Origin: Syntrophomonadaceae bacterium
GTDB taxonomy: Bacteria > Bacillota > Syntrophomonadia > Syntrophomonadales > Syntrophomonadaceae
DNA length: 18,249 nucleotides
Direction: 5' to 3'
Assembly (NCBI GenBank): GCA_035353375.1
Contig: DAOPZM010000018.1
Location: 37,436 to 55,684, forward strand
Shown: positions 1 through 16,167 of the stretch, piece after piece
Numbering within the stretch: position 1 is the first letter of the stretch
How the letters are laid out: the number at the start of each line of letters is the position of its first letter
Made by a program: the position numbers and the translations under genes
Notes under the pieces: model-generated
Database searches by the model: none
What the model saw: only the letters and a program-made list of their open reading frames with translations
Told to the model about the DNA's origin: nothing

Positions 1-549
1 ATGCCCTGAACCTGATGGAACTAAGTCATGGAGACAAGGTCGAATTTTACTATGCTGCCGGCATAACAGACCCGACTGATTTGACGGCGGTCAAGGCAGC
101 AGCAGTGGCAGCGGTGAAAACCGTGGCCTCGACCATGGACGTACTGTATGACGGGACAGTTGATTTAACACCGGATGCGACCTTCGACGTGACGGCTTAC
201 AACTCTTCTGCTTCTTATACAGTCGAAGAAACTACCCCGCTGGGAGCACTACAGGCAACCGGCTTGACCTATGGAGTAACAGATAAGAACTATGCAAGCT
301 CAGGAGCTTTGCTATTGGACAATGTAGGAACTTATCTGCGTGATAAAACTAACAGCACCTATTGGTACGCCTACGTTAATGATGTCTATAAAGACGGCTA
401 CAACAATGCTCCGGATGCCCTGAACCTGATGGAACTAAGTCATGGAGACAAGGTCGAATTTTACTATGCAGCTGGCATAACAGACCCGACTGATCTGACG
501 GCGGTCAAGGCAGCGGCGGTGGCAGCAGTGAAAACCGTGGCCTCAACAG
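1..549 (+). repeat. Intragenic direct repeat: 134-nt segment (1-134) repeated at 415-548, period 414 nt (138 codons)
   Basis: Base-by-base comparison of 1-134 with 415-548 gives 8 mismatches (positions 56, 59, 81, 101, 104, 113, 131, 134 of copy 1). All are synonymous; both copies encode the identical 44-aa string ALNLMELSHGDKVEFYYAAGITDPTDLTAVKAAAVAAVKTVAST. Confidence 0.95.
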
Positions 550-3500
550 GTGTCGCGCCAACCGACTGGACCCTTCAGCTCTCCGGAGCGAAGAATGTTT
601 CGGTTAGCAAGGCCAATTTTGAAGCCGGCCTTGCATGTGCGTCCTCAGGGCACCAGGTTTTCTGGACTGATACTAAAGATACTGATGATACCAGCGACGA
701 TGATGTCTGGGGAGGTGTGCCTCTCTGGCTGCTCGTTGCCATGGTTGATGATGATCCCGATGTTGGTTCTGAGCACTATAACTTCAATGATGATCTGGCC
801 GCTGAGAACTATGAAATTAAAGTTATAGCCGGCGACGGATGGTCCACAATCCTTGACAGTGCCGCTATTGCCCGCAGCGATGGCTATATCATTGCCAATA
901 CCCTTAACGGAGAACCGCTTCCGCTTAAAACTGAATCGGATAAAGATTGCTGGCCTCTGCAATTGAAAGGTTCAGCGATTTCCGGCGGACAGCAGGTAGG
1001 CAACATCGCTCGCATTGAACTGTCTGGCATGCCTGAACCATCTGTAGGATGGACCCTGGAAGTGGTTGGAGAAATTGGAGATACCATCACCCAGGCAGAA
1101 TTTGAAGAGGGACTGGCCTGTACCGGTTCAGGACATTACAAAGAATGGACGGATATCGATGGCAATGTTTGGTCCGGTGTGCCCCTATGGCTGTTATTAG
1201 GTGCGGTGGATAACATCGAGACAAGCAGCCACTGGACTTTTGATAATACCTTGCCGGCCAGCTATACGGTGAAAGTGGTCAATGCCGAAGGTGACTATGA
1301 AAAGACTTTTAATGGCTCGGATGTTGCCGGAAGTGATGACTATATTGTGGCTGACCAGATGAACGGTGAGCCGCTTACCGATTCATATCCGCTGCGCCTG
1401 GTAGGCGATGGAGTCACAAAAGATGATGGGTCACTGGGGGGCTTGGCTGTTGGTAACCTCGCCAGGATCGAAATCCCCGAGCTGCAGACACCGGAAGCGG
1501 AAGCAGGAAGCTGGAATCTTACATTAAGCGGGAAGATAAGCGATGTTATTGCCCAGGCTGAGTTTGAAGCTGCTCTGGCCTGCCCCGGTTCAGGACATTC
1601 CGCAGAATGGACTGACCTTGACGGTAATGTGTGGTCCGGTATGCCGCTTTGGTTCCTGACCGGCTGGGTAGACGACAGGCAGCCGCACGATTACGACGCC
1701 AATCAGGCGGCGGCTGGATATAAGGTCCTGGTGAAAGCCAGTGATGGTTACAGCGTTGATTTTGACAGCTCGGATGTTAAATGGAGCAACGAATATATCG
1801 TAGCCAACAAATTTAATGGCGATCCACTTACCGATTCATGGCCGCTGCGTCTGGTTGGAACAGGCGTCATCGGAGATGATGGTGCTCTAAGCGGTATCAG
1901 CGTCGGGAAGATCACGGAGATCGAACTGACGACTTTCGGAACTGCTGCAGACATACCCGAACTACATATCGTCAAGTATGCTGAAGATGGTACTTCTGTC
2001 CTTAATGAAATAACAATCGATTATCGGGATATGGAGAGCAATTATGATGTGATAGGAGACGGGACAACAATATACAGGTATGAAGGCATAACCAACAATC
2101 CGGAGGATGTTTGGGATGCAGCTGAGACCTATCCCGGCGGCTATAAGATTGCCAATGCCGTTAAGGGTACGCGCATAAAAGATCTTTGTGATCAGGTTGG
2201 CGGCATGGGGGCAGGGACTGAAATAGTCCTGAGTGCCGACGACGGGTACGAAACCAGGCTTCCCTACTCCTCCATCTATACCGACCCTTCAGTGCAGGAA
2301 CGGCAGGGAGATGCCATTCTGGCCTGGTGGGGAGATGGAGACTACGTACCCTATTATGCAGATGGTATGCGTTTATTATTTACTCCGGGCGGTGACCATG
2401 TCTATGGACAATGGGATATGCACGAGACGCTGCCGTCAAGCTACTGGCACTACTACTACAGCGATAATGTACAGTATCCTTCATGCGGCGGGTTATCGAG
2501 CAAGTATATTACCAATATAGAGATATATTCGGTGCCAGCGGGCGATTGGACCCTTGAACTTGATGGTACTGATATTGGCGGGTTGGAGTACGATGTAAGC
2601 AAAACTTATTTTGAATCAGCACTCGCTTGTCAGTTCGGAGCCAATCACAAGGCAACCTACACAGATACTGATAGTCATTTATGGGAAGGTATGCCTTTGT
2701 GGTTCCTGGCCGGATTTGTTGATGACGTTGACCAGCATTCCGATGAATCCTTTAATGATGAACTTGCCGAGTCCGGATATAATGTTGTGATCACCTCTAC
2801 TGATGGGGATTCGGTAACAATCAACAGCAATGACATTATCAGGAACAGCGGCTACATTGTGGCCAATTCATTAGATGGGGCTATTTTCCCCGATGCGGAC
2901 AGCAATTGGCCCCTTTGCCTGGTGGGTTCGGCGGTAAGCGGGAATAACGCTATCGCTCAGATAAAAAGCATTGAACTGGTTAAGCCTGAAGCAACGCTGC
3001 AGGATCTGACCATAAGTCAAGGAACCTTAACTCCGGCATTCGACCCGGACACATATTCCTACACAGCTGATGTGGCGAGTACAATTTCATCAGTAACTAT
3101 AAGCGCAACTGAAAATGATGGTATGACAGCATCCGGAGACATTGGCACATTTAACCTGACCAAAGGCGCCAATACTTTTGAAATTGATGTCGACGGAGGA
3201 GCCACCCATACCGATGCCACTTATACGATCATTATCACCCGGAAATCAACTGCTGCTAACGGCGGTGGCGGTGGCGGGGTAGTTGTTACTCCAACCGTAA
3301 CCGGCGTAGATGTAAAGAACGCTCCGGACAAAGTAATATACGACGAAGGCGATGCTTTGGATCTGACCGGTCTGGCGGTGACCTTGACCTATTCGAATGG
3401 AACCACCAAAGATGTTGTATGGGCTGATTTTGCTGATTATGATATCACTGTTGCACCGGAAGATGGTGCTTTATTAAAAGCAGCTGACAGCGAAATAGTT

Positions 3501-4127
3501 ATTGCCGTGAACGGTAAAACGGTCAGGCAGACCATTACAGTAAAAACAGAAATACCGGTAACACCGGAAACTCCAGTAAATCCTCCGGCAGAGGAAACAC
3601 CAGTGCTGACCGATATAGATGGCCACTGGGCGGCAGAGTATATAAAGTATCTGGTCGATATTGGAGCTGTTGCCGGGTATCCGGATAACACTTTCAAACC
3701 GGATGAGCTGGTTACCCGCGCCGAATTTGCCAAAATGCTAGTGGAAGCTTTTGGATTGACGGCGGAATCAGGCAAAATATTTGATGATACCGCAGACTAT
3801 TGGGCTAAGGATTATATCGCTGCGGCAGCTGCCCATGGAATCGTAGCCGGTTACAACGATAATGAATTTGGACCGGATGACGTAATCACCCGTGAGCAGA
3901 TTGCAATCATGATAGTTAAAGCTGCCGGGTTGGATGCAGTTGAAGGAGAATTAACTTTCGCCGATGAAGCTGATATATCCTCCTGGGCACATGATTGGGT
4001 TGTAACTGCTGCCCAAAACAAGCTGATGAGCGGTTACACAGATAACACTTTCCGCCCGCAGGATATTGCTACAAGGGCGGAGGCTGTTACAACCATTGTG
4101 AATGCATTAAAATTGTTCAAAGAATAA
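1..4127 (+). CDS. Giant S-layer-anchored multidomain surface protein, 5'-truncated by the window edge
   Basis: The frame is open from base 3 (codons 3-14 = ALNL, continuing a repeat seen again at 415); stop TAA at 4125-4127. By-eye domains: tail of one DUF4430/transcobalamin-like module (1-60) and a complete one (135-470; YWYAYVNDVYKDGY...GDKVEFYYA). Four ~140-155-aa modules carry the sulfite-oxidase/YedY Moco-domain signature (WxLxxxG ... WxGVPLW ... DGY ... NGEPL ... WPLRLVG ... IxxIEL) at 567-1028, 1050-1481, 1512-1931 and 2547-2981. One divergent module (1962-2531) is paralogous to the ORFs at 5616 and 10177. Also a cadherin-like beta-sandwich (2997-3242; LQDLTISQGTLTPAFDPDTYSYT), an Ig-like (Big) domain (3298-3543), and three SLH repeats (3606-4113). 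Confidence 0.9.
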   Translation, partial: ALNLMELSHGDKVEFYYAAGITDPTDLTAVKAAAVAAVKTVASTMDVLYDGTVDLTPDATFDVTAYNSSASYTVEETTPLGALQATGLTYGVTDKNYASSGALLLDNVGTYLRDKTNSTYWYAYVNDVYKDGYNNAPDALNLMELSHGDKVEFYYAAGITDPTDLTAVKAAAVAAVKTVASTGVAPTDWTLQLSGAKNVSVSKANFEAGLACASSGHQVFWTDTKDTDDTSDDDVWGGVPLWLLVAMVDDDPDVGSEHYNFNDDLAAENYEIKVIAGDGWSTILDSAAIARSDGYIIANTLNGEPLPLKTESDKDCWPLQLKGSAISGGQQVGNIARIELSGMPEPSVGWTLEVVGEIGDTITQAEFEEGLACTGSGHYKEWTDIDGNVWSGVPLWLLLGAVDNIETSSHWTFDNTLPASYTVKVVNAEGDYEKTFNGSDVAGSDDYIVADQMNGEPLTDSYPLRLVGDGVTKDDGSLGGLAVGNLARIEIPELQTPEAEAGSWNLTLSGKISDVIAQAEFEAALACPGSGHSAEWTDLDGNVWSGMPLWFLTGWVDDRQPHDYDANQAAAGYKVLVKASDGYSVDFDSSDVKWSNEYIVANKFNGDPLTDSWPLRLVGTGVIGDDGALSGISVGKITEIELTTFGTAADIPELHIVKYAEDGTSVLNEITIDYRDMESNYDVIGDGTTIYRYEGITNNPEDVWDAAETYPGGYKIANAVKGTRIKDLCDQVGGMGAGTEIVLSADDGYETRLPYSSIYTDPSVQERQGDAILAWWGDGDYVPYYADGMRLLFTPGGDHVYGQWDMHETLPSSYWHYYYSDNVQYPSCGGLSSKYITNIEIYSVPAGDWTLELDGTDIGGLEYDVSKTYFESALACQFGANHKATYTDTDSHLWEGMPLWFLAGFVDDVDQHSDESFNDELAESGYNVVITSTDGDSVTINSNDIIRNSGYIVANSLDGAIFPDADSNWPLCLVGSAVSGNNAIAQIKSIELVKPEATLQDLTISQGTLTPAFDPDTYSYTADVASTISSVTISATENDGMTASGDIGTFNLTKGANTFEIDVDGGATHTDATYTIIITRKSTAANGGGGGGVVVTPTVTGVDVKNAPDKVIYDEGDALDLTGLAVTLTYSNGTTKDVVWADFADYDITVAPEDGALLKAADSEIVIAVNGKTVRQTITVKTEIPVTPETPVNPPAEETPVLTDIDGHWAAEYIKYLVDIGAVAGYPDNTFKPDELVTRAEFAKMLVEAFGLTAESGKIFDDTADYWAKDYIAAAAAHGIVAGYNDNEFGPDDVITREQIAIMIVKAAGLDAVEGELTFADEADISSWAHDWVVTAAQNKLMSGYTDNTFRPQDIATRAEAVTTIVNALKLFKE
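567..2981 (+). repeat. Protein-level array of five sulfite-oxidase-fold-like modules inside the giant surface protein (four canonical, one divergent)
   Basis: Recurring WTL(Q/E)xxG ... (G/A)LACxGSGH ... W(G/S/E)G(V/M)PLW(L/F)L ... DG(W/Y/D) ... Y(I)(I/V)AN ... NG(E/D)PL ... WPL(Q/R/C)L(K/V)G ... I(E)(L/I) blocks in the translated ORF. Nucleotide identity between units is low, so these are old duplications. Confidence 0.75.
3606..4113 (+). other. Three tandem S-layer homology (SLH) domains, the cell-wall anchor of the giant protein
   Basis: Motifs LTDIDGHWAAEYIKYLVDIGAVAGYPDNTFKPDELVTRAEFAKMLV, FDDTADYWAKDYIAAAAAHGIVAGYNDNEFGPDDVITREQIAIMIV and FADEADISSWAHDWVVTAAQNKLMSGYTDNTFRPQDIATRAEAVTTIV match the classical SLH consensus (xW..xY(I/V)..a...gi..Gy.dgtF.P...iTRaE.a). 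Confidence 0.9.
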
Positions 4128-5615: not shown

Positions 5616-6482
5616 ATGTCGAAAGGGATAATCTCGCGGTTTTGTTGCTTAGCGGTTTCAGTCGTATTTTCGCTGCTCATAACCCAGTTTTTTATGGTTT
5701 CTCCGGCATGGGGTGCGGGGGCTACGACTTCGGTGCATCTGATCAAATATGCAGCTGATGGTGTGACCGTATCAGACGAGAAAATCGTTGATTACAAATG
5801 GATGGAAAAAAACCTTAAGGTTTATGGGGACGGGAAGACTCATTATTATCACCAGGGGCCTGTATTCGAAGGAGATTTATGGGATCCGGACGAAGTCAAT
5901 AATCTTAAAGACAAAGGAGCGGTGAAGGGTACTGCAATCAAAGATTTGTGTGACCTGATCGGCGGGATGGAAACCGGCGATGAAGTGATGCTGGTATCAG
6001 TAGACAAATGGCATACGGAGTTTGCTTACAGCAATGTCTACGAACCTCTGGATATTCAAGGAGTAATTGCTCTTTGCTGGTACAATGGTGAGGATATTGC
6101 CGAGGGAGAGCGATTTGGGGTGGGATACCCGGCCAATAATGCTTATCGTACGGGACTGCAGATAGTCTTTATGCCGGAATCTGCGAACAGTGAAGGGAAA
6201 TATGTTTTCGGCAACAATGACATGAAAATAGCCTTGCCCCAGGAAAAGTACCAGCATTTTTTTGAAGGGCAATACCCGAGTACCAGCGGCCTTTCCGGCA
6301 AGTGGGTCAGTGAACTGAGAATTTACAGCGGCGGTGTTCCGGAAAACCTGATCATTGAATTAAACGACCAGCCTCCTTTAACCGAGTCTGAAAAGACTAT
6401 ACCCTGGATACCCATTATAGCAGGAGCAGTGGGGATAGTATTAGTCGGCGGGTATATTTATTTGAGGAGAAAACCAGAATGA
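5616..6482 (+). CDS. Extracytoplasmic, C-terminally membrane-anchored protein with one divergent sulfite-oxidase-fold-like module (paralogue of 1962-2531 and 10177-11358)
   Basis: RBS AAAGGGG lies upstream of ATG 5616. Signal peptide ...FFMVSPAWGAGA. Shared motifs with paralogues: H(L/I)(I/V)KYAxDG, GDGxTHYYHQGPVF, KGTxIKDLCxxxGGM, PSxSGLSxK. C-terminal TM plus basic tail: IPIIAGAVGIVLVGGYIYLRRKPE. Confidence 0.85.
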   Translation: MSKGIISRFCCLAVSVVFSLLITQFFMVSPAWGAGATTSVHLIKYAADGVTVSDEKIVDYKWMEKNLKVYGDGKTHYYHQGPVFEGDLWDPDEVNNLKDKGAVKGTAIKDLCDLIGGMETGDEVMLVSVDKWHTEFAYSNVYEPLDIQGVIALCWYNGEDIAEGERFGVGYPANNAYRTGLQIVFMPESANSEGKYVFGNNDMKIALPQEKYQHFFEGQYPSTSGLSGKWVSELRIYSGGVPENLIIELNDQPPLTESEKTIPWIPIIAGAVGIVLVGGYIYLRRKPE

Positions 6483-7060
6483 AAGATAAAATGGCCAAGG
6501 CCTTATTAATAATTGGAGTTTTGTTCATCCTGGGATCAGTACTTGTATACCTGCAGCCCTGGCAGGGGCAGGTTGATGCGGAAACCAGAAATTGGCAGTT
6601 GACTTTAGTCGGCCGTGACGGTGATGAAAAGGTGCTATCCTATAAGGATATTACCGGGCTGCCGGCTTACCAGGGCAAAGGAGGCTTTTTCTCTACGATT
6701 GGGATTGTTTATGGGCCCTATGATGCCAAAGGGGTTACCTTGGAAGAATTGTGTGAACAAGTTGGCGGGATAGTTCAGGGTGATGCAGTAATGATAACAG
6801 CCAAGGATGGTTATTCAACAGTTCTGGATTATGAGCAGGTCATGGGAGAATTTATTACTTACAATTCTGAGCTTAAGGAAGTGCCTCACCCAGAACTTAA
6901 GACCATACTGATGTATAAGCAGGACGGCAAACCATTGGCTGATGAAGACGGCAAACCGTTTAGAATTGCGGTGGTGAGCAAAGACCAGGGACTTCTGAAT
7001 GAGGGTACCTATTGGGTCAAATGGGTCAATAAAATAGAAGTGCTTAATAAAACTCCCTGA
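6479..7060 (+). CDS. Small N-terminally anchored protein with a molybdopterin-binding-oxidoreductase-like (sulfite-oxidase-fold) domain
   Basis: ATGA start/stop overlap with the upstream gene; GAGGAG RBS at 6464-6469. N-terminal TM ALLIIGVLFILGSVLVYL, then WQLTLVGRDG...LSYKDI...KGVTLEELCEQVGG...AKDGYS...DGKPL...PFRIAV...YWVKWVNKIEV, the typical layout of Oxidored_molyb-type domains. Confidence 0.85.
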   Translation: MKDKMAKALLIIGVLFILGSVLVYLQPWQGQVDAETRNWQLTLVGRDGDEKVLSYKDITGLPAYQGKGGFFSTIGIVYGPYDAKGVTLEELCEQVGGIVQGDAVMITAKDGYSTVLDYEQVMGEFITYNSELKEVPHPELKTILMYKQDGKPLADEDGKPFRIAVVSKDQGLLNEGTYWVKWVNKIEVLNKTP

Positions 7061-7081: not shown

Positions 7082-8170
7082 GTGGTCGGATTATTGTCTG
7101 CAAGAAAATGGGTGTATGCTTTTTTATTAGTGGCAATTATATTGACGGCGACAGGGTGCTCCCGAACGGATACCCGTCAGGATAACGGCAAAGTTGAGTT
7201 GAAGGTAATAATTGCCGGCAGTCTTATGGTGCCCTTTCAAGCCATTGAAAAGGAATTTGAGAGAGACAATCCGGATATAGATGTGTTGCTGGAAGGGCAT
7301 GGAAGTGTGCAGGCAATACGCTGTGTAACTGAATTGGGAGATATAGCAGACCTGACTGCTGTAGCTGATACCCAGCTTATTCCAGCGATGATGTATTCTA
7401 CCCGGATCCCCGGAAGCGATACTCCTTATGCTGATTGGCTGGTTAAGTTTTCTGCTAACCGGCTGGGGATTGCCTATAAGGATGAAAGCGCTTATTCATC
7501 CGAAATCAATGCTGATAACTGGTACGAAATAATTTCCCGGCCGGATGTATCCATCGGTCTGGCGGACCCCCGCATCGATGCTATGGGGTACCGCACCTTG
7601 ATGACGATGCAGCTGGCTGAGGATTATTACAGTGATAATACTATATTCGAAAGGACAATAGGAGATGCGTTCAATCCGCCCTTGGTTGTTTCTGAACAGG
7701 GGGGGGATTTTAACATAATTGTTCCCGAGATTGTAAAATCAAATCAATCCAGGGTTAAGCTGCGCAGTTACAGCATACAATTGATGGCGCTCCTGGAGTC
7801 AGGTGATTTAGATTATTCGTTCGAGTATGAAAGTGTAGCCAAACAACGGGGGCTCAAGTTTTTAAGCCTGCCTGAAGCGATCGACCTCAGCAGTCCGGAT
7901 TACAATAAGCAATACCGGCAGGTGGAAGTAAACCTCGACTTTAAAAGATTTGCATCTGTCATACCCAGTTTTAAAGGAACCCAAATCGTATATGGATTAA
8001 CTATACCTGAAAATGCTCAACATCCAGGCGAGGCGGAACGGTTAATAGAGTATGTTCTCAGTCCGGACGGCCGGCGCATATTCGAACAGTGCCACCAGCC
8101 GTTGTTAGCGACTCCGGTATGTGACAATGTCCAGGCCTTGCCTGAGTCTCTTCAGCCATTATTCCGTTAG
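7082..8170 (+). CDS. wtpA: Tungstate/molybdate ABC transporter substrate-binding lipoprotein, WtpA family
   Basis: Lipobox LTATGC follows a hydrophobic N-terminus. Strong by-eye similarity to archaeal WtpA proteins as I recall them: AGSLxxPF, GSVxxIRxVTELG, NWYEIxxRPDV, GYRTLMxxQLAExYY, ESGDLDYxFxYxSVAKQxG, IDLSSPDY, IVYGLTIPxNA. The start may be TTG 7094, which is 8 nt after AAGGTGG at 7079-7085, rather than GTG 7082. Confidence 0.8.
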   Translation: MVGLLSARKWVYAFLLVAIILTATGCSRTDTRQDNGKVELKVIIAGSLMVPFQAIEKEFERDNPDIDVLLEGHGSVQAIRCVTELGDIADLTAVADTQLIPAMMYSTRIPGSDTPYADWLVKFSANRLGIAYKDESAYSSEINADNWYEIISRPDVSIGLADPRIDAMGYRTLMTMQLAEDYYSDNTIFERTIGDAFNPPLVVSEQGGDFNIIVPEIVKSNQSRVKLRSYSIQLMALLESGDLDYSFEYESVAKQRGLKFLSLPEAIDLSSPDYNKQYRQVEVNLDFKRFASVIPSFKGTQIVYGLTIPENAQHPGEAERLIEYVLSPDGRRIFEQCHQPLLATPVCDNVQALPESLQPLFR

Positions 8171-8179
8171 GAGATACAA

Positions 8180-9004
8180 ATGGAAGATAACGGGCAGATT
8201 AAAAACAATTGGTTGAGTAAAATTTTTAAGCATAGTTTTACTTTTTTATTTATCATACTTGGGTTTCTGATACTGCTGTTTATATTGGTGCCCTTGTTTA
8301 AGATGGTTTTTCTCTCAGATAAGGAAGCTATGTGGTTAGCCCTTCTCGACAGTGAAACCATACAGGCGGTCTGGCTTTCCATATATGCGGCCCTGATCGC
8401 TACTGCGATTGGCTTTGTTCTGGGAGTTCCCCTTGCTTATCTTTTCGCCCGCTATGAGTTTCCCGGCAAAAACATTTTTGAAGGTTTAATAGATCTGCCA
8501 ATCGTGGTGCCTCATTCTGCAGCAGGCATAGCCTTGCTTTTTGTCTTCGGCAGTAATTTTATAGTTGGGAAAGGATTTAAGCTGTTTGGTATCCAATTCG
8601 TTGATTCCCTGGCCGGGATCATCATCGCTATGCTGTTTGTAAGTGTGCCTATCTTAATTAGTTCAGCGAAGGAAAGTTTCAGAAAGGTGGATGTACGCCT
8701 GGAAAAGGTCGCGCGTACATTGGGAGCTTCTCCCTGGCAGACTTTTTTCAGGATCTCCTTCCCTTTGGCCTGGCGCAGCATACTGGCGGGGAGCTTGATG
8801 ATGTGGGCCAGAGGTATGAGCGAATTCGGTGCGGTAATTATTCTTACTTACCACCCGACAACCGCTCCGGTCCTTATCTATGAACGGTTTGAGACTTTTG
8901 GGTTGGCGCAGGCAATTCCAGTGGCGGCTATTATGATAATCATCAGTGCTGTTGTTTTTATTGGGGTTCAAACTCTTTTACGCTGGAGGAAAAACTATGA
9001 TTAG
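8180..9004 (+). CDS. wtpB: Tungstate/molybdate ABC transporter permease (ModB/WtpB-like)
   Basis: AGGAG RBS at 8169-8173. Multi-TM protein with the ABC-permease EAA-type loop ARTLGASPWQTFFRISFPLAWRSILAGSLMMWARGMSEFGAV. Located between the SBP and ATPase genes. Confidence 0.8.
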   Translation: MEDNGQIKNNWLSKIFKHSFTFLFIILGFLILLFILVPLFKMVFLSDKEAMWLALLDSETIQAVWLSIYAALIATAIGFVLGVPLAYLFARYEFPGKNIFEGLIDLPIVVPHSAAGIALLFVFGSNFIVGKGFKLFGIQFVDSLAGIIIAMLFVSVPILISSAKESFRKVDVRLEKVARTLGASPWQTFFRISFPLAWRSILAGSLMMWARGMSEFGAVIILTYHPTTAPVLIYERFETFGLAQAIPVAAIMIIISAVVFIGVQTLLRWRKNYD

Positions 9005-10049
9005 CTTAGCTGGAGTAAACTTGCAGTTACATGGATTTGCCCTTCAGGATATCAACCTAAAAATAGACAACGGCGATTATTTCATATTGGTTGGTCCTTC
9101 AGCTTCGGGTAAAACGTTGCTATTGGAAACCATAGCTGGTTTGCACAATGTCACCTCCGGCAAAATCTGGATCGATGGCAGAGATATAACCTCATTGGAG
9201 TCGGAAAAAAGGAATATCGGCATGGTGTATCAGGATTGTGCCCTGTTTCCACACCTGACAGTCAGGGATAACATTGTTTTCGGTTTGGTTATCAGGGGGA
9301 AGAAACCCGCTGTGATTAACCGTGAACTCAAACGGATAGTGCAGCTTCTTAACATTGGGTATCTGCTTGACAGAAGACCCCATAATCTCAGCGGCGGCGA
9401 AAAACAGAAGGTGGCTTTGGCCCGGGCCCTGGTTACTAATCCGGAACTGCTGCTTCTGGATGAACCTCTGGGCGCTCTTGATCCGCAGACACGAGAGACT
9501 GTAAGGCAGGAGATCAATAAACTCCATCAGGAATTGGGTATTACCATTTTGCATGTTACCCACGATTTTGAAGAGGCGGTTACTTTAGGGACACGAATAG
9601 CAGTGATCGGGGAAGGCTCAATAAAGCAGGCCGGTCTGCCGGATGAAATTTTCCATCATCCTAATTCCAGGTTTGTAGCTTATTTCACGATGGCAGTAAA
9701 TGTATTCCCCGGAGCGGCCGAAAGGGAGAACGACAACAAAACGTTTTTTATAGTTGAAAATACCAGATTTGAAACTGAAGAAAGTATTACCGGGGCTTGT
9801 TATGCGGCCATCCGCCCTGAAAATATATTGCTCTCAAACACCTTCCCGGTAAACAATGGCCAGGGCTTTTTCACGGGGGTGATAACCGGGATTATTAACA
9901 GGGGCTCAATTATAAACATAATAGTCGATCTGCCCCCAACGTTGGTTTGCCTGCTTACCCGCAATGCATTCGAGCAAATGAATCTAACGGTGGGTCAGCA
10001 GGTGTACCTGACAGTGCCGCCATCATCAGTTTATTTATTTACAGATTAG
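8997..10049 (+). CDS. wtpC: Tungstate/molybdate ABC transporter ATP-binding protein with a C-terminal TOBE-like domain (ModC/WtpC-like)
   Basis: Walker A GPSASGKT, Q-loop, signature LSGGEKQKVALARAL, Walker B LLLLDEP and H-loop HVTHD. The C-terminal ~100 aa are TOBE-like (IRPENILL ... GVITGIINRGSIINIIVDL ... GQQVYLTVPPSSVYLF). I prefer ATG 8997 (GGAGGA at 8984-8989, 8-nt overlap with the wtpB stop) over the track start 8946, which lies inside wtpB and adds a non-homologous 17-aa leader. Confidence 0.85.
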   Translation: MISLAGVNLQLHGFALQDINLKIDNGDYFILVGPSASGKTLLLETIAGLHNVTSGKIWIDGRDITSLESEKRNIGMVYQDCALFPHLTVRDNIVFGLVIRGKKPAVINRELKRIVQLLNIGYLLDRRPHNLSGGEKQKVALARALVTNPELLLLDEPLGALDPQTRETVRQEINKLHQELGITILHVTHDFEEAVTLGTRIAVIGEGSIKQAGLPDEIFHHPNSRFVAYFTMAVNVFPGAAERENDNKTFFIVENTRFETEESITGACYAAIRPENILLSNTFPVNNGQGFFTGVITGIINRGSIINIIVDLPPTLVCLLTRNAFEQMNLTVGQQVYLTVPPSSVYLFTD

Positions 10050-10176: not shown

Positions 10177-11358
10177 TTGCTGAAGCACATACTGAACAGT
10201 TTATGGCTGACAAGAGTGAAGGCAATGGCCGTGATTTTATTTGTGACAGTGATAGTGATTTTACCGCAATCAACGGAAGCTGCTCCCACTACCAGCTTAA
10301 CCATAAAAAAAATGGCTGTTGACGGAAAAACAGTTCTGGCGAAAAAAACAATTGATTACCATTGGATGATGGATCCCAATAACATTCCGGTGATGGGGGA
10401 TGGTATGACCCATTACTATCATCAGGGCCCCGTCTTTGTTGATGATCCTGATCCGGATACAGAAGAAGCGCTGCGCTGGAATCCTGCGGAAGATACTAAT
10501 GTACGGGAGAAGGACATGGGAGCCCTGATGGGAACGAATGTCAAGGACCTGTGTAATCTGGTCGGCGGCATGGCTGAGCACGATACGCTGAGAATAAAAG
10601 CTCAGGACGGGTTGAGTAAACAATTTGCCTATAAGAATATATATCAATACTCAAGTCGGGAAGGACCTATGGTAATATCTTGGTACAAGGACGGTCAATA
10701 TCCTGACAGCGGATTTTCTGATGGCATGCGTCTGGTTTGGCTTGCAGACACCTCGACCAATCCGTGGGGTATCCACGTTTTTGGCAATTGGGACTGGTGC
10801 CAGGCGGCAGAAGAAAATTATTGGTACTATTATCAAAGCGGCGATGAAAAGTATCCTACAACTACCGGGCTTTCAGTGATGTTCGTCAATGAGCTGATAA
10901 TAAACAGTACTGAGCCTGTGCCTGAGGGGCCGATAGTTCCGGCGGCCGGGTTCAAGGCCGATAAGACATCAGGCTATGAACCACTGACTGTGAATTTTAC
11001 AGACCAGTCGGCAAACTCTCCGACTTCATGTGCATGGGACTTTGACAATGACGGCAGGATTGACAGTACAGACAAGAGCCCGTCCTATACCTTTGAAAGC
11101 GCAGGCCAGTACAGTGTAAAATTGACCGTGAACAATTATGCCGGCAGCGATTCTGAGGTTAAGCTGGATTACATAATAGTCGATCCTGCAAAATCCAATG
11201 AAGTTGCCAATGAAAAGCCTGCTCCATTGGAGCAGGAGAAACCTTCGCCTGATACGAATAAAAAACAATTTGACTATGCAAAAAAGGTGTTCATTCCGGC
11301 TATGGTGATTATTGCTCTTGGCCTGGGAATAATCCTGCTTAGAAAGAAGGACAGGTAA
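10177..11358 (+). CDS. Extracytoplasmic membrane-anchored protein: divergent sulfite-oxidase-fold-like module + PKD domain + C-terminal TM anchor
   Basis: TTG start at 10177 preceded by GAAAGGGGGAG. Signal peptide ...ILPQSTEAAP. Paralogue motifs: GDGMTHYYHQGPVF, GTNVKDLCNLVGGM, YPTTTGLS. PKD domain at ~10948-11185 (PLTVNFTDQS...WDFDNDG...SPSYTFESAGQYSVKLTVNN). C-terminal TM plus basic tail: IPAMVIIALGLGIILLRKKDR. Confidence 0.85.
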   Translation: MLKHILNSLWLTRVKAMAVILFVTVIVILPQSTEAAPTTSLTIKKMAVDGKTVLAKKTIDYHWMMDPNNIPVMGDGMTHYYHQGPVFVDDPDPDTEEALRWNPAEDTNVREKDMGALMGTNVKDLCNLVGGMAEHDTLRIKAQDGLSKQFAYKNIYQYSSREGPMVISWYKDGQYPDSGFSDGMRLVWLADTSTNPWGIHVFGNWDWCQAAEENYWYYYQSGDEKYPTTTGLSVMFVNELIINSTEPVPEGPIVPAAGFKADKTSGYEPLTVNFTDQSANSPTSCAWDFDNDGRIDSTDKSPSYTFESAGQYSVKLTVNNYAGSDSEVKLDYIIVDPAKSNEVANEKPAPLEQEKPSPDTNKKQFDYAKKVFIPAMVIIALGLGIILLRKKDR

Positions 11359-11514: not shown

Positions 11515-11549
11515 AATCCGAACGTACCTTATATAAAGGAGTTCGGATT
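11515..11549 (+). terminator. Stem-loop in the intergenic region downstream of the PKD gene; possible terminator or RNA structure
   Basis: AATCCGAAC (11515-11523) pairs with GTTCGGATT (11541-11549). An inner CCTT/AAGG pairing (11527-11530 / 11536-11539) extends it. A TTTTTT run occurs only at 11562-11567, so it is not canonical. Confidence 0.3.
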
Positions 11550-11655: not shown

Positions 11656-11699
11656 TTACATTTTGAATGAAATGTAAAAGCTGTTATTTCAGTTATAAT
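11656..11699 (+). promoter_or_regulatory. Perfect 8-bp inverted repeat plus consensus -10 box upstream of the RyR gene
   Basis: TTACATTT (11656-11663), 6-nt spacer TGAATG, AAATGTAA (11670-11677). TATAAT at 11694-11699. There is no good -35 hexamer; the right arm of the repeat sits where -35 would be. ATG at 11755 is preceded by AAGGAG. Confidence 0.35.
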
Positions 11700-11754
11700 A
11701 GTATCAAAGAAACAATGAATCAAGTAATCAATCAATATTTAAGGAGAATACCAT

Positions 11755-12039
11755 ATGGCTTATAAACCTGAACCGATCAACACTTCCAGTATTCAATTGA
11801 ATGACGGCATAAAGGAACTTACAGAACTATTGGCTGAAAATGCCCATGATATCTGGGCTCTGCAGCGCATGAGTGATGGATGGGTTTACGGGAGAAAACG
11901 CAATGATGAAAAAAAGGAACATCCCTGTTTGATTGCTTATGAGCAGTTACCCGAAGCGGAGAAAGAGTATGATCGTAAAATAGCAATGGAAACAATAAAG
12001 GTTATTATTGCCCTGGGATATCGAATCGAAAAAGCATAA
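11755..12039 (+). CDS. Stand-alone RyR (ryanodine-receptor repeat) domain protein, 94 aa
   Basis: Strong AAGGAG RBS. Near full-length match to the RyR repeat consensus as known from animal RyR channels: P-x-P-(I/V)-(N/D)-TS-x-I-x-L ... LAEN-x-H-x-x-W ... GW-x-YG ... R-x-D-x-x-K-x-HPCL ... LPE-x-E-x-x-YD ... ETIK-x-x-x-ALGY. Confidence 0.9.
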   Translation: MAYKPEPINTSSIQLNDGIKELTELLAENAHDIWALQRMSDGWVYGRKRNDEKKEHPCLIAYEQLPEAEKEYDRKIAMETIKVIIALGYRIEKA

Positions 12040-12096
12040 CCCGGGATATATTTAATGAAGAATATTTGATATTTTGCTTTTTGGGGGGAGAGGCAA

Positions 12097-15000
12097 ATGG
12101 ACAATATTGTAAAATGGCATTCCCAGGGCATATTCATCTCCAGTACTTTTCGGGATATGCATGCCGAAAGAGGGTATCTGCAGGACATCGTATTTCCCGA
12201 GCTGGAGAAGAGACTGAGAGAAAGCGCTTATCCATATCATATCGAACCCATCGATCTGCGCTGGGGAGTAGAGACTGCCGGGCTTAATGAACAGCAGCAA
12301 AAAGAAACAGAAGTATTGAAAGTATGCCTGAACGAAATCGAGCGCAGCCGCCCCTTTATGATCGTCCTGCTGGGTGACCGCTATGGCTGGGTACCACCGG
12401 CAGTCAATATCAAAAGAGCCATAGAAGGCACCGGCTATTCCTGTGATATAAACGGGCGAAGCGTTACCGCCCTGGAAATAGAATACGGCATCCTGAACTC
12501 ACTGGCTGAATATAAACGCTGCTTCTTCTACTTCCGCAACCCCCTGCCTTATGAAAACATGCCAGCGAATACAGCCGCCAGATACAGTGACCGGTACAAT
12601 CCTGATGAGCAAGCCAGCTATCCCAAACTGCAGGCATTAAAACAGCGCATCAAAGAAACCGGCCATGGACCGGTCAGAGAATATTGGGCGGACTGGAACC
12701 AGAGCGATCAGGAAGTCAGCGGGCTGGAAGCATTCGGAGATCTGGTAACTGAAGACCTGTGGCAGGCTATACAGGAAGAATGCCGGAGAACGATAGAAGA
12801 ACAGCCCCGGACCTGGCAGGAAGAAGAACAATGGCTGCTGGAACAATACATAGAAAACCGGTATCCATACTATCACAGCGCCAGCCTCATTCAGCAGCAG
12901 ATGGCAGCCAGCATCCGTCAGCAAGCAGTTCAGAGCCTAAAAGACTTCCTTTTATCCCCGCCGGGATCAGGTACAGCCAGAGGAATATGTCTGGCAGGAG
13001 AACCCGGGGCCGGCAAAAGCACCTTGTTTGCCCGTCTCTGCCGGGAAATGCAGCAGGAAGATGTATTGATACTGGCCCATGCCGGAGGCATCGGCAGCCG
13101 GGCCGGAAACAGCCAGACCATGCTGCGCCTGTGGATACAAGCCATGAATAAATTTCTCGGTCTAAAGGATACCTCAGACTCACTTGATACCCGCAAAGAA
13201 ACAGAAGATACCTTCGCCGAACTGTTGTCCCGCTCTGCAGTCAAAAAACGGGTCATAGTAATGATAGATGCCTTGAATGAATTTCAGGACAGCCAGGCTA
13301 AGTACCTCACCTGGCTGCCGGAGATATGGCCAAATAATGCCCGCTTGCTGATCACCACCATTACCGGCGCCGAACCGAAAGTGCGCAACCTGGAAATCAA
13401 GTACCTGGCAGCGTTGACAAAAAACGAAGCAACAGCCGTTTGCCAGGTAATATGCAGCCGTTATCACAAAACCCTGAATTCCCAGGTCGAAAAAATCATA
13501 TTATCCCATAAGCATAATGATCAGCCCTCATACGGCAATCCCTTGTGGATCCAGTTAGCCATCAATGAGATACTCACCCTGGACGAAGATGATTATGCCC
13601 GCCTGGAAAAAGATGAACTTCAGGGAACCGCCGAAGCAAGACTGCTGTCCATGCTGCTCGATACAGCGCAAAAACTGCCCCCGGATGTTCCCGGACTGTA
13701 CCAGTCCCTGACCGAAAAACTGGAGAACCTTTTTGGAGCGTCCCAGGTAAAAAGCCTATTAAGCCTGATTGCCGTCAGCCGCATGGGACTACGCGAAAGC
13801 GATCTTAAACAGCTGGTACCCGTAATGACCGGGGAGGCTTGGCAGGACCTGACCTTTGCCCGGATAAGAAACTATCTGGGAAGTCATCTGGTGCAGAGAG
13901 GGACAGAAAACCTGTGGAACTTCTTCCACCAGCAAGCCAAAATATCAGTCATGAACCGTTATCTGAAAAACGAAGCCGACTTAAAAAACCTCCATGCCGT
14001 AATCGCCGCTTATCTGGAAACCCTCACCCGGCAAGATCCCTTAAGGATCAACGAAATCATGTACCACTATATCCATGCGGATGACAAGCTAAAAGCTGCC
14101 AAATATTACGGTGCATACGATTTAAATGACCAGGAAATCCAGGGTGCTGCTCAGGCTCTGGCCAGCCATATCATCAATAACAGCCACGATGAAGCTCTGG
14201 AGTGGGTCTGCAGCCTGCTGCAAAGTCCGTTATCAGCGGATGAAATATGTATAATAGCAAATCACAATAACGCTTATTTGCTCACATATCTTGAGCACTT
14301 CGTAAGCCTTGCTGATCAGACTGTTTTACTTAATACGGCTAAGACTGCCCTTATTAAGATTGTTGATGAGCATTCCGATAATTTAATCTATAGGCGAAAT
14401 CTTTCTGTTAGCTACGACCGGCTGGGCAGAGCAGAAGCTACCCGGGGCAACTGGGCAGGAGCCCGGCAGTATTACCAGAACAGCCTGGAAATCAGAAAAG
14501 AACTGGCCAAGCTTTACCCGGACAATGCAGAATATAGGCGGGAACTATTCGTAAGCTACGATAGGCTGGGTGAAGTGGAAGAGACCCGGGGCAACTGGGA
14601 AGGAGCCATGCAGTATTACCAGGATAGCTTGAAAATTATTAAAGAATTGGTCAGGCTTTATCCGGATAATACCCAATACAAGCGGGATCTATACATAAGC
14701 TGCCAGAAGATGGGCGGAGTGGCAGAACCCCGGGGTAACTGGGAAGGAGCCCGGCAGTATTATCAGGACAGCCTGGAGATGATAAAAGAACTGGTCAATC
14801 TTTTCCCGGATAGTACTCAATACAATCAGGATTTGTCCATAGGGTACAACAGGTTGGCCAATGTGGAAGAAACCCGGGGCAACTGGGAAATAGCCCGGGT
14901 ATATTATGGGGACAGTCTGGAAATTACAAAAGAACTAGTCAGGTTTTTCCCGGAAAATGCTCGGTTCAAGTGGGATTTGTCCATAAATTATATCAATCTG

Positions 15001-16167
15001 GGTAATGTTGAAGCTACCCGGGGCAACTGGGAGAGAGCCCAGCAGTATTACCAGGACAGCCTGAAGATTAAAAAGGAATTAGTAAGTCTTTTCCCTGAAA
15101 ACGTTCAGTACAAGCGAGATCTATCTGTAGGCTATAACAAACTGGCCAATGTGGAGGAGAACCGGAACAAATGGGAAAAAGTCCGGTTATATTTCCAGAA
15201 CATCCTGGAGATTACGGAAGAATTAATAAGCCTATCCCCTGAAAATGTCCAGTACAAGCAGGATCTATCTGTAGGCTATAACAAACTGGCCAATGTGGAA
15301 GAGATCCGCGGTAATTGGGATAGAGCCCGGCAGTATTATGAAGAAAGCCTGAAAATTGTAAAAGAATTAGTAAGGATTTCCCCGGAAAATGCCCGGTACA
15401 AGCGGGATTTGTTCGTAAGCTATATCAGGCTGGGCGGAGTAGAAGAGAACCGGTGTAACTGGGAAGGAGCCAGGCAGTATTATGAGGAAAGCCTGGAGAT
15501 GGTAAAAGAACAGGTCAGGATTTCCCCGGAATTCACCCAGTACAAGCGGGATCTGTTCGTAAGCTATATCAGGCTGGGGGGAGTGGAAGAGAACCGGGGC
15601 AACTGGGAAGGAGCCCGGCAGTATTACCAGGACAGCCTGGAGATTACAGAAGAATTAGTCAACCTTTCTCCAGAAACTGCCCAGTTTAAGTTGGATTTGT
15701 CAACGACCCAAGTTAGACTGGGCAATGTGGAAGAGAGGCAGGGCAACTGGGAAAAAGCCCGCGTTTACTACCAGGAGAGCCTGCAGATCACAAAAGAATT
15801 AATCAGCATTTCCCCGGAAACTACCCAGTTAAAGCGGGATTTGTTTGTAAGCTATATCAGACTGGGCGGAGTAGAAGAGAATCGGTGTAACTGGGAAGGA
15901 GCCCGGCAGTATTTCAAGGACAGCCTGGAGACTATAAAAGAATTAGTTAGCCTTTTCCCGGAAAGCGCCCAGTTAAAGCGGGATCTGTTTGTAAGCTATA
16001 TCAGACTGGGTGGGGTGGAAAAGAGGCAAGGCAACTTGGAGATGACCCGGCAGTATTATCATGACAGCCTGGAGATTGTAAAAGAATTAGTTAGCCTTTT
16101 CCCAGAAAGCTCGCAGTATAGAGGAGATTTGTCTATAATCTGCGATAAGATGAAAGAAGTGGAATAG
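12097..16167 (+). CDS. DUF4062 (TIR-like fold) - STAND P-loop NTPase (NACHT/NB-ARC-like) - 12x 48-aa TPR-like repeat protein, 1356 aa
   Basis: GGGGGGAGAGG RBS at 12083-12093, 57 nt after the RyR stop. N-terminus IFISSTFRDMHAERGYL...DLRWGV...CLNEIERSRPFMIVLLGDRYGWVPP is the DUF4062 signature. Walker A GEPGAGKST (aa 301-309), Walker B VIVMIDALNEF (aa 386-396), sensor-1-like ARLLITTIT. Helical linker, then tandem TPR-like repeats from aa 765 to the C-terminus. Confidence 0.92.
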   Translation: MDNIVKWHSQGIFISSTFRDMHAERGYLQDIVFPELEKRLRESAYPYHIEPIDLRWGVETAGLNEQQQKETEVLKVCLNEIERSRPFMIVLLGDRYGWVPPAVNIKRAIEGTGYSCDINGRSVTALEIEYGILNSLAEYKRCFFYFRNPLPYENMPANTAARYSDRYNPDEQASYPKLQALKQRIKETGHGPVREYWADWNQSDQEVSGLEAFGDLVTEDLWQAIQEECRRTIEEQPRTWQEEEQWLLEQYIENRYPYYHSASLIQQQMAASIRQQAVQSLKDFLLSPPGSGTARGICLAGEPGAGKSTLFARLCREMQQEDVLILAHAGGIGSRAGNSQTMLRLWIQAMNKFLGLKDTSDSLDTRKETEDTFAELLSRSAVKKRVIVMIDALNEFQDSQAKYLTWLPEIWPNNARLLITTITGAEPKVRNLEIKYLAALTKNEATAVCQVICSRYHKTLNSQVEKIILSHKHNDQPSYGNPLWIQLAINEILTLDEDDYARLEKDELQGTAEARLLSMLLDTAQKLPPDVPGLYQSLTEKLENLFGASQVKSLLSLIAVSRMGLRESDLKQLVPVMTGEAWQDLTFARIRNYLGSHLVQRGTENLWNFFHQQAKISVMNRYLKNEADLKNLHAVIAAYLETLTRQDPLRINEIMYHYIHADDKLKAAKYYGAYDLNDQEIQGAAQALASHIINNSHDEALEWVCSLLQSPLSADEICIIANHNNAYLLTYLEHFVSLADQTVLLNTAKTALIKIVDEHSDNLIYRRNLSVSYDRLGRAEATRGNWAGARQYYQNSLEIRKELAKLYPDNAEYRRELFVSYDRLGEVEETRGNWEGAMQYYQDSLKIIKELVRLYPDNTQYKRDLYISCQKMGGVAEPRGNWEGARQYYQDSLEMIKELVNLFPDSTQYNQDLSIGYNRLANVEETRGNWEIARVYYGDSLEITKELVRFFPENARFKWDLSINYINLGNVEATRGNWERAQQYYQDSLKIKKELVSLFPENVQYKRDLSVGYNKLANVEENRNKWEKVRLYFQNILEITEELISLSPENVQYKQDLSVGYNKLANVEEIRGNWDRARQYYEESLKIVKELVRISPENARYKRDLFVSYIRLGGVEENRCNWEGARQYYEESLEMVKEQVRISPEFTQYKRDLFVSYIRLGGVEENRGNWEGARQYYQDSLEITEELVNLSPETAQFKLDLSTTQVRLGNVEERQGNWEKARVYYQESLQITKELISISPETTQLKRDLFVSYIRLGGVEENRCNWEGARQYFKDSLETIKELVSLFPESAQLKRDLFVSYIRLGGVEKRQGNLEMTRQYYHDSLEIVKELVSLFPESSQYRGDLSIICDKMKEVE
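12127..12399 (+). other. DUF4062 domain (N-(deoxy)ribosyltransferase/TIR-like fold), putative effector module
   Basis: aa 11-101. Conserved FISSTF-x-D-x-x-x-ER at the start (candidate catalytic Glu24) and hhhLG-x-RYGW at the end. Confidence 0.75.
12985..13365 (+). other. STAND NTPase core (Walker A to sensor-1-like strand)
   Basis: ICLAGEPGAGKSTLFARL (Lys307) ... KRVIVMIDALNEF (Asp391) ... NARLLITTIT. Confidence 0.85.
14389..16164 (+). repeat. Tandem coding repeat: 12 complete 144-nt (48-aa) TPR-like units plus a 16-codon partial unit
   Basis: Unit boundaries were checked at 14389, 14533 and 16117 (each starts with TAT = Tyr). Consensus: Y(K/R)RDL(S/F)V(S/G)Y(x)(R/K)L(G/A)xVEExRGNWEGARQYYQDSLEIxKELVxLxPExxQ. 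Adjacent units 6/7, 8/9 and 11/12 share long, nearly identical nucleotide stretches. Confidence 0.95.

Follow-up and report, generated by a model that had tools for sequence, protein, structure and literature searches.

The window analysed here is the whole of an 18,249-nt stretch from Syntrophomonadaceae bacterium (assembly GCA_035353375.1, contig DAOPZM010000018.1, positions 37,436-55,684 of the forward strand). Its main subject is a pair of plus-strand genes: a small gene for a free-standing protein of one ryanodine receptor (RyR) repeat and, 57 nt downstream, a gene for a signal transduction ATPase with numerous domains (STAND) that begins with a TIR-like DUF4062 domain. Homologues of the RyR gene are linked to TIR-like genes in many genomes, and that linkage is the main result below. 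The features of the pair and of its leader are as follows.

11515..11549 (+): hairpin with a U-rich stretch after it (−21 kcal/mol by RNA folding, z = −1.95), not flagged by the consensus terminator scan.
11741..11746 (+): Shine-Dalgarno sequence AAGGAG, 8 nt 5' of the RyR start codon, read from the sequence.
11755..12039 (+): RyR gene, 94-aa free-standing one-repeat protein, identified by Pfam, PDB, AF2/Foldseek and homologues.
11845..11973 (+): codons for the residues of a predicted nucleotide pocket, H31 (11845-47), W34 (11854-56), R49 (11899-901), H56 (11920-22) and Y72/D73 (11968-73), placed by BLASTP to the phage protein gp68.
12040..12096 (+): spacer of 57 nt containing GGGGGAGAGG, the purine-rich ribosome-binding site of the STAND gene, read from the sequence.
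12097..12876 (+): DUF4062 TIR-like NADase domain, predicted catalytic E127 (codon 12475-12477); Pfam 46.4 bits against a cut-off of 24.7.
12916..13386 (+): NACHT/AAA_16/NPHP3_N NTPase, Walker A G304-x-G306-K307 and Walker B D391, from Pfam and invariant alignment columns.
14421..16108 (+): TPR sensor array, 11.7 copies of a 144-nt (48-aa) unit; TRF score 1196, 74% matches, with TPR_10, TPR_12 and TPR_2.

The RyR open reading frame (ORF) starts with ATG. Residues 3-93 of its product were matched by Pfam RyR (PF02026) over the complete profile (positions 1-91 of 91) at 122 bits (cut-off 27.4, E = 1.2e-35). The protein contains the motifs LAENAHDIW, GWVYG, KEHPCL, LPEAEKEYD and ETIKVIIALGY. A preliminary description, made from the sequence without database searches, had recognised RyR repeats by eye; the profile search upheld this assignment and every motif quoted was found in the 94-aa product. 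The protein is confirmed as one complete RyR domain and a member of PF02026.

Sequence searches of the PDB matched all four repeats of RyR1, RyR2 and RyR3 (i-Evalue 1.3e-20 for RyR2 repeat 1) and, with E of about 1e-30, the free-standing "putative ryanodine receptor" of B. thetaiotaomicron (3nrt/4n05/6uag). Identity was 52% to the B. thetaiotaomicron protein and 40%, 32% and 34% to RyR2 repeats 1, 2 and 3. An AF2 model generated from 30 homologues has a mean pLDDT of 92.9 and the Repeat12-type fold, with two long helices (residues 17-40 and 67-86) and a beta-hairpin insert. Foldseek superposed the model on 3nrt, 6uhb, 9l90 and RyR1 with TM-scores of 0.82-0.92, and its matches included B. thetaiotaomicron dimers and human RyR3 Repeat12 with ATP, AMP-PCP and dantrolene.

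The B. thetaiotaomicron protein (PDB 3NRT, 4N05, 6UAG, 6UAM, 6UG4, 6UG5) is likewise a single free-standing repeat, of ∼100 aa (TM-score 0.85-0.88). In crystals it forms dimers resembling the tandem Repeat12 of animals, and open, closed and apo dimers have been deposited; no published function or genomic-context analysis was found for it. Metazoan Repeat12 and Repeat34 share the fold and pocket residues of the window protein (32-40% identity for single repeats of RyR2), and Repeat12 binds adenine nucleotides and dantrolene. The metazoan repeats are covalent tandem pairs in a channel of ∼5000 aa, whereas the window protein has one repeat and no channel context. The earlier suggestion that a single repeat would need to pair is borne out by analogy, with the B. 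thetaiotaomicron homologue deposited as dimers and the phage homologues described below being homodimeric. Free-standing homologues of ∼94 aa fell into more than 563 clusters, 55-100% identical, and a 30-sequence alignment of this family has 32 invariant positions. A profile search with RyR domains of the type fused to larger proteins returned only short proteins of 58-196 aa. A second population of short RyR-domain proteins (P0121-P0231) is closer to the fused type than to the window type.

Functions have been reported for phage members of the same family. RyDEP proteins (PF02026) are homodimers that cleave the ribose-ribose bond of the cyclic ADP-ribose (cADPR) isomers 2'cADPR and 3'cADPR, or sequester them at nanomolar affinity, defeating Thoeris; their dyad is H75/D117, with W78 and H100 in addition (Lopez Rivera et al., May 2026, PMC13232231). 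RyR Tad (Pectobacterium phage CB1 gp68) is a dimer and acts as a sponge, its ligands being 3'cADPR, 2'cADPR and cADPR and its ligand residues H129/W132, K147/H154 and K170/D171 (10.64898/2026.06.04.730250). The preliminary description had called the biochemical role of prokaryotic RyR domains unresolved, which these two reports of binding and cleavage have made partly outdated; its proposal to screen NAD-derived nucleotides as ligands was apt.

By BLASTP the window protein is 39% identical to gp68 over 51 residues, and H129/W132/K147/H154/K170/D171 of gp68 align with H31/W34/R49/H56/Y72/D73. RyDEP H75/W78/H100/D117 have the same spacing (+3, +25, +42) as H31/W34/H56/D73. Among the small host RyR proteins (80 surveyed loci, described below, and the window), H31, W34 and D73 are present in 81/81, R49 in 80/81 and H56 in 69/81. 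The pocket residues are also kept in RyR domains fused to larger proteins. Position 56 is Thr in 11/81 and Asn in one, with H31, W34 and D73 constant, and these replacements could distinguish a subgroup whose ligand preference or activity is altered. RyDEP (mycobacteriophage DyoEdafos gp78) and RyR Tad thus share the PF02026 family, the H/W/H/D pocket and its spacing with the window protein. They too are small, stand-alone or nearly stand-alone domains, and homodimerisation of the window protein would be expected by analogy. They are encoded by phages in anti-defence hotspots, whereas the window gene is chromosomal in its host and its homologues are co-oriented with TIR-like genes. The window protein also differs from RyR Tad in keeping the N-terminal YxPxPIxT strand typical of animal repeats and in having Y72 for K170. 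It was not placed in the RyDEP/RyR Tad group, since it is not phage-encoded.

The STAND gene (12097-16167, plus strand) encodes 1356 aa, in which Pfam located DUF4062, then NACHT/AAA_16/NPHP3_N, then a long TPR array. The N-terminus matched the TIR-like domain of human TEP1 (PDB 11gz) with E = 6.6e-26, and TEP1 R908/R976/E1008 correspond to R19/R95/E127 (chain offset set by R908). E127 and R95 are invariant across 7 relatives, and G304, G306, K307 and D391 are invariant among the STAND relatives. Given the TEP1-like domain and the invariance of E127, R95 and the Walker residues, the protein is predicted to be a competent NAD-cleaving, NPHP3-like NTPase. The TPR array is very regular at the DNA level and could expand, contract or recombine.

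DUF4062 has been described as a TIR-like NADase yielding ADP-ribose (ADPR) and nicotinamide that underlies the bacterial Swarozyc (KpSwz) defence and the activity of human TEP1; NPHP3, NWD1 and NWD2 share a DUF4062-NACHT layout (Osinski et al., bioRxiv May 2026, 10.64898/2026.05.01.722283). The window STAND has DUF4062 with the catalytic Glu in common with Swarozyc, TEP1, NPHP3 and NWD1/2, and the DUF4062-NACHT-TPR architecture in common with NPHP3 (NPHP3_N match; TPR_NPHP3 matches in relatives). Swarozyc, as described, is a one-gene system that has another auxiliary domain and is switched on by phage portal, whereas the window STAND ends in NACHT and TPR and is accompanied by the RyR gene; a RyR partner is mentioned nowhere in the DUF4062 paper. 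As in the STAND/NLR-like antiviral ATPases (Avs, bNACHT), an effector, a P-loop NTPase with intact Walker A and B and a repeat sensor are combined in one protein, but the defence-island location typical of those ATPases is not seen here. A role in defence is proposed for the window STAND.

The RyR gene is separated from the upstream PKD-domain gene by a 396-nt AT-rich spacer. The hairpin at 11515-11549 may, on weak evidence, be the terminator of the PKD-domain gene, and the RyR gene would then open a new transcription unit. The promoter scan gave no plus-strand sigma-70 match 5' of the RyR gene; a TATAAT at 11694-11699 is present without a well-spaced −35 element. The scan of the 57-nt RyR-STAND spacer gave no terminator-like site or hairpin. 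The RyR gene is apparently promoter-proximal and co-transcribed with the STAND gene, which agrees with the position in a STAND operon that had been proposed for it. Rfam gave sub-threshold chance matches only, and the presence of a riboswitch or any other known RNA element was rejected both for the 396-nt leader and for the 57-nt spacer. The RyR and STAND ORFs share a reading frame (starts 342 nt apart; stops TAA at 12037-12039 and TGA at 12067-12069), which is probably without significance.

The pair of genes was found identical on at least five independent metagenome or metagenome-assembled genome (MAG) contigs. Its surroundings are conserved, with an ABC transporter and a PKD protein, then pdxS/pdxT and amtB/P-II. 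No phage genes were found among the genes of the 18-kb window or of the 20-kb locus L081, and a foreign-DNA island was rejected, the GC content being flat save for the AT-rich leader. The window is not a recognisable defence island, its neighbours being S-layer/PKD proteins, the ABC transporter, pdxS/pdxT and amtB. PADLOC has no model for the RyR protein and gave only generic TPR matches in the window.

Linkage of the RyR gene was surveyed by a scan of one genome per species, which returned more than 535 free-standing RyR loci. The best 80 were analysed; these are best matches, not a random sample, and L027 and L065 among them are near-duplicates. They span Planctomycetota, Acidobacteriota, Bacillota, Verrucomicrobiota, Chloroflexota, Pseudomonadota, Bacteroidota, Spirochaetota, a Thermoplasmatales archaeon and other lineages. 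The RyR gene was anchored by tblastn, and adjacent same-strand ORFs (called crudely) were taken and clustered. Hidden Markov models (HMMs) for TIR, SLATT and DUF4062 were made from the neighbours themselves and checked against Pfam at cluster level only.

The neighbours formed three groups, with a fourth partner in addition.

Group 1: TIR_2/TIR proteins (15/22 members) and DUF4062 proteins; TPR or NACHT is present in many.
Group 2: two-transmembrane SLATT_1, SLATT_3 and DUF4231 proteins.
Group 3: large proteins; in half of them a divergent RyR stands at the C-terminus, joined to TrkA_N, MoxR-type AAA, RelA_SpoT + LSDAT/SLOG or NUDIX; Card1-like nuclease and kinase proteins also belong here.
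Fourth partner: TPR-S guanylate/adenylate cyclase, a separate gene in L033, L040, L049 and L053.

The frequencies of the partner classes were as follows, the second fraction covering those loci that have 5 kb or more of flank on each side.

Same-strand TIR-like gene (TIR or DUF4062) within 5 kb: 37/80 loci (29 within 2 kb); 22/41.
SLATT/DUF4231: 23/80 loci; 13/41.
Second, fused RyR domain: 16/80 loci; 8/41.
At least one of TIR-like, SLATT and second RyR: 51/80 loci; 26/41.

The nearest TIR-like domain lay at a median of 901 nt from the RyR gene and was co-oriented with it in 38/42 cases; a DUF4062 gene lay within 10 kb in 7/80 loci. The orders RyR-SLATT-TIR, TIR-RyR-SLATT, RyR-TIR, cyclase-RyR-TIR and RyR-SLATT recurred, the first two accounting for 15/80 loci. 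DUF4062 is present in about 1-15% of genomes (10.64898/2026.05.01.722283) and TIR signalling systems in about 8%, so that by a rough estimate well under one such gene per 80 loci would be expected by chance. The linkage of RyR genes to TIR-like genes is not due to chance. Several loci were of additional interest. Syntrophomonadaceae loci carry cyclase, RyR and TIR as separate adjoining genes. A window-type RyR is fused to the N-terminus of a TPR-S cyclase in L012 (9989-12256) and L063 (1568-3880). Proteins of L061 (3313-5886) and L062 (4633-7653) join RelA_SpoT, a nucleotide pyrophosphokinase, to a C-terminal RyR; that of L061 also contains LSDAT_prok (TRPM-type SLOG), and L061 holds a MoxR-AAA-RyR protein and a DUF4062-NTPase as well.

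The reciprocal survey was a metagenome scan with the DUF4062-NTPase region, from which 80 loci (29-54% identity) were taken. RyR domains were present in the available flanks of 15/80 loci, and in 11/41 of those with at least 3 kb upstream. Small RyR ORFs lie directly 5' of the DUF4062 gene in L130 and L131, as in the window; they belong to a more divergent subfamily in which the H..W, H and D residues are kept. Other RyR-positive loci have a large neighbour with one or two C-terminal RyR domains. From the counts on both sides, the DUF4062-RyR link is seen from both directions and in two RyR subfamilies. Were the two window genes simply unrelated neighbours, their adjacency would be functionally meaningless; the absence of a recognisable defence island and of a PADLOC model for RyR would fit this explanation. 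Reciprocal linkage in two independent collections, far above expectation, already disfavours it, and we consider it the least credible of the explanations weighed here. Beside DUF4062-NTPase genes, two small RyR genes stand in tandem in L130 (1-519), and at other such loci (L111 9547-10047, L125 421-1100, L147 1327-1800) large proteins have two RyR domains in succession. Both layouts are natural equivalents, in bacteria, of the tandem Repeat12 of animals.

Close homologues of the window RyR protein were found with different partners. A homologue of 81% identity has DUF4231 as its only partner, one of 74% a convergent TIR_2 gene, and one of 72% TIR-TPR, DUF4231 and TIR. The mean pairwise identity of small RyR proteins is equal within and between partner classes (about 58-66%), and the nearest RyR sequence neighbour belonged to the same partner class in 28% of cases vs 21% in shuffles (p about 0.11). 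Partner-specific RyR subfamilies were rejected, as the RyR sequences are not sorted by partner class. Recognition of RyR by the TPR array was also rejected as a general rule: a TPR sensor is present in 8/16 RyR-positive and 22/34 RyR-negative DUF4062 STANDs, and WD40 in 3/16 of the RyR-positive ones. A RyR sequence that hardly varies as its partners change argues for a link through a shared, diffusible small molecule and against STAND-specific docking. Common to the partners is NAD/ADP-ribose chemistry, not the NTPase. Docking on the STAND, especially on its DUF4062 or repeat region, had been proposed in the preliminary description; it is not supported, since close homologues pair with SLATT/DUF4231, plain TIR, TPR-S cyclases and RyR-fused enzymes.

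The same results bear on a ligand-independent antitoxin or adaptor, in which RyR would sit on the DUF4062 head or the TPR array and keep the STAND inactive, or bridge it to a target. Such a function would suit a small promoter-proximal gene 57 nt 5' of a potentially toxic NADase gene, and the RyR-STAND pair is kept on all contigs with the window allele. The layout also resembles a type II toxin-antitoxin pair, with a small upstream gene, a 57-nt gap without a terminator-like site and a potentially toxic gene downstream. The partner-specific recognition (co-variation) of such pairs is not seen: RyR proteins do not partition by partner class or correlate with sensor repeat type, and partners are exchanged among homologues as close as 81% and 72% identity. 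The strictly conserved residues are those of the ligand pocket, and 65/80 related STAND loci have no RyR. We regard an antitoxin or adaptor as improbable.

A 95%-identical RyR allele (L173 6001-6285, a Syntrophomonadaceae MAG) lies in a different chromosomal neighbourhood, on a contig that ends just past RyR, and the 81% allele (L087/L088) adjoins a Transposase_mut gene. These contexts suggest that the RyR module moves. They would also be compatible with a mobile element whose RyDEP-like anti-defence gene adjoins a defence gene by chance, as would the 259 phage records that encode RyR-domain proteins. The window and L081 contain transport, PKD, pdxS/pdxT and amtB neighbours without phage genes, in flat GC, and across many phyla RyR genes lie close to TIR-like genes and in the same orientation. 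Phage homologues are 34-50% identical over residues ∼24-73, host homologues 55-73% over the full length. A mobile anti-defence gene is therefore very improbable.

Type VII Thoeris consists of a TIR protein and the SLATT effector ThsH and uses canonical cADPR as its signal (Yirmiya et al., 10.64898/2025.12.03.692087). TIR+SLATT operons contain a homologue of the window RyR at 15/80 loci, and cADPR is also a ligand of RyR Tad. The system was described with two genes and no RyR, and the window has neither a SLATT gene nor a separate TIR gene; SLATT, SIR2, Macro and caspase genes were all absent from the window. With no separate TIR gene and no separate effector gene, the window is not a strict Thoeris system.

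The window RyR protein would be a host-encoded binder or hydrolase of ADPR-family nucleotides in TIR-like immunity, most plausibly with a braking action; we favour this reading tentatively and stop somewhat short of calling it probable. The RyR protein would form a homodimer like its B. thetaiotaomicron and phage homologues, and each protomer would hold an ADPR-type nucleotide (ADPR, cADPR or 2'/3'cADPR) in the H31/W34/R49/H56/D73 pocket. In the STAND, the TPR array would be the presumed sensor of an invader, NACHT would oligomerise the protein and the DUF4062 head would cleave NAD+ through E127. RyR would act on the nucleotide output of TIR-like enzymes, the link being chemical and not a partner-specific protein contact. 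As a brake, the dimer would sequester or hydrolyse nucleotide from leaky or spent TIR-like activity and so set a threshold or reset the system. On the phage side, RyDEP and RyR Tad would be copies captured from this host regulator.

A brake is favoured over other directions of action for three reasons. Sequestration and hydrolysis are the only activities measured for stand-alone RyR dimers, and the validated type VII Thoeris works without RyR. The third reason is an analogy. In type III CRISPR, the CARF fold occurs as an effector-fused receptor and as a stand-alone host ring nuclease (Crn1), with viral anti-CRISPR counterparts in AcrIII-1/Crn2. The effector-fused, stand-alone host and virus-captured forms of RyR would mirror this pattern; the logic proposed is the same, and the fold and ligand (cyclic oligoadenylates) are unrelated.

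Several observations weigh against this reading. None of the three partner classes was detected by the home-made HMMs in 29/80 RyR loci, several of which are short contigs, and 65/80 DUF4062-NTPase loci have no RyR in their flanks, which makes RyR an optional accessory. In several loci the RyR stop codon overlaps the SLATT start by 4 nt; this arrangement and the window-type RyR-TPR-S cyclase fusions of L012 and L063 both resemble a receptor subunit more than a sink. The ligand-contacting K170 of RyR Tad is Y72 in the window protein. KpSwz and TEP1, the two characterised DUF4062 enzymes, yield linear ADPR alone and work through depletion of NAD+ (10.64898/2026.05.01.722283); with linear ADPR only, and no separate signal-responsive effector, a brake has no evident target in the two-gene unit. 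Finally, human RyR3 Repeat12 binds ATP and ADP (PDB structures), so the ligand of the window RyR could be an ordinary adenine nucleotide.

This last point leads to a metabolic sensor of ATP/ADP, unrelated to NAD-derived signals, as proposed for animal Repeat12. RyR3 Repeat12 was crystallised with ATP, ADP and AMP-PCP in the homologous pocket, and RyR Tad is promiscuous among ADPR-type ligands (10.64898/2026.06.04.730250). A sensor of this kind leaves the enrichment beside TIR, DUF4062 and SLATT genes unexplained, and phage homologues bind cADPR isomers at nanomolar affinity; we hold it to be doubtful, with a small chance of being correct.

Receptor or relay function is the stronger competitor of the brake, and we rate it as possible yet unlikely. 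Here a ligand-bound RyR dimer would close and switch on its partner (a SLATT pore, a cyclase or the DUF4062-NACHT-TPR NADase), in the manner of a split form of Thoeris ThsA, which combines sensor and NADase. Consistent with this, divergent RyR domains occupy the C-terminus, the usual place of a sensor, in MoxR-AAA, RelA_SpoT-LSDAT and TrkA_N proteins, with Card1-nuclease and kinase proteins in the same cluster. The TPR-S guanylate cyclase is fused to RyR in L012 and L063 and split from it in L033, L040, L049 and L053; the 4-nt overlaps between RyR and SLATT genes point to coupled translation, as in subunits of a complex; and the crystals of the B. thetaiotaomicron homologue include open, closed and apo dimers. 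Set against these points, a nearly constant 94-aa protein would have to activate unrelated partners with no partner-specific sequence signature. Type VII Thoeris, validated as TIR+SLATT, needs no RyR, stand-alone RyR dimers have been measured only as sequestering or hydrolysing, and the STAND has a sensor array of its own.

More broadly, and with a confidence just short of probable, free-standing host RyR proteins may be built-in regulators of TIR, DUF4062 and SLATT operons, as signal sinks/hydrolases or as receptor subunits. They may represent the missing third component of type VII-like Thoeris and DUF4062 STANDs, and the cellular source of phage RyDEP/RyR Tad and of the animal RyR repeat. 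On this view, the long-debated connection of cADPR with the ryanodine receptor would go back to an immune module of bacterial TIR systems, and both halves of the operon, the RyR repeat and the NPHP3-like DUF4062-NACHT-TPR protein, would have passed into animals. The activities of phage RyR proteins were known before; what the window would add is a RyR-domain nucleotide module that belongs to a TIR-like immune operon. No paper on RyR genes in TIR, DUF4062 or SLATT operons was found in open text, including the DUF4062, Thoeris-survey, STAND-survey and conflict-system papers, with figures and non-open literature outside the search.

The window joins three preprints of 2025-2026, on RyR binding and cleavage of cADPR-type signals (in phages only), on the DUF4062 NADase and on TIR+SLATT cADPR signalling. 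Hosts carry the RyR module within TIR-like operons of their own, in many phyla and in at least one archaeon. Should it act as a brake, TIR-derived nucleotide signalling would have its first host-encoded off-switch or threshold device, comparable to the CRISPR ring nucleases; should it be a receptor, RyR would join SLOG, Macro, CARF and SAVED among signal-sensing domains. On either reading, the protein offers a small, soluble, easily purified bacterial model for the recognition of NAD-derived nucleotides by the RyR repeat fold, and bears on the old question of cADPR action on animal ryanodine receptors via Repeat12.

Upstream of the pair, the ORF at 15-4127 encodes the C-terminal portion of a giant surface protein of PKD/cadherin-like/SLH type, which has 2206 aa in L081. 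The first 40 residues of the window ORF, MELSHGDKVEFYYAAGITDPTDLTAVKAAAVAAVKTVAST, are exactly repeated about 139 residues further on, which indicates a recent internal duplication. An uncharacterised domain (KYA.DG...YHQGPVF...) with faint Oxidored_molyb matches was found in 5616-6482, 6479-7060, 10177-11358 and part of 15-4127. Proteins with this domain are secreted or membrane-bound and flank a tungstate/molybdate-type ABC transporter (7082-10049), with which they may form a cell-surface cluster related to metal or pterin.

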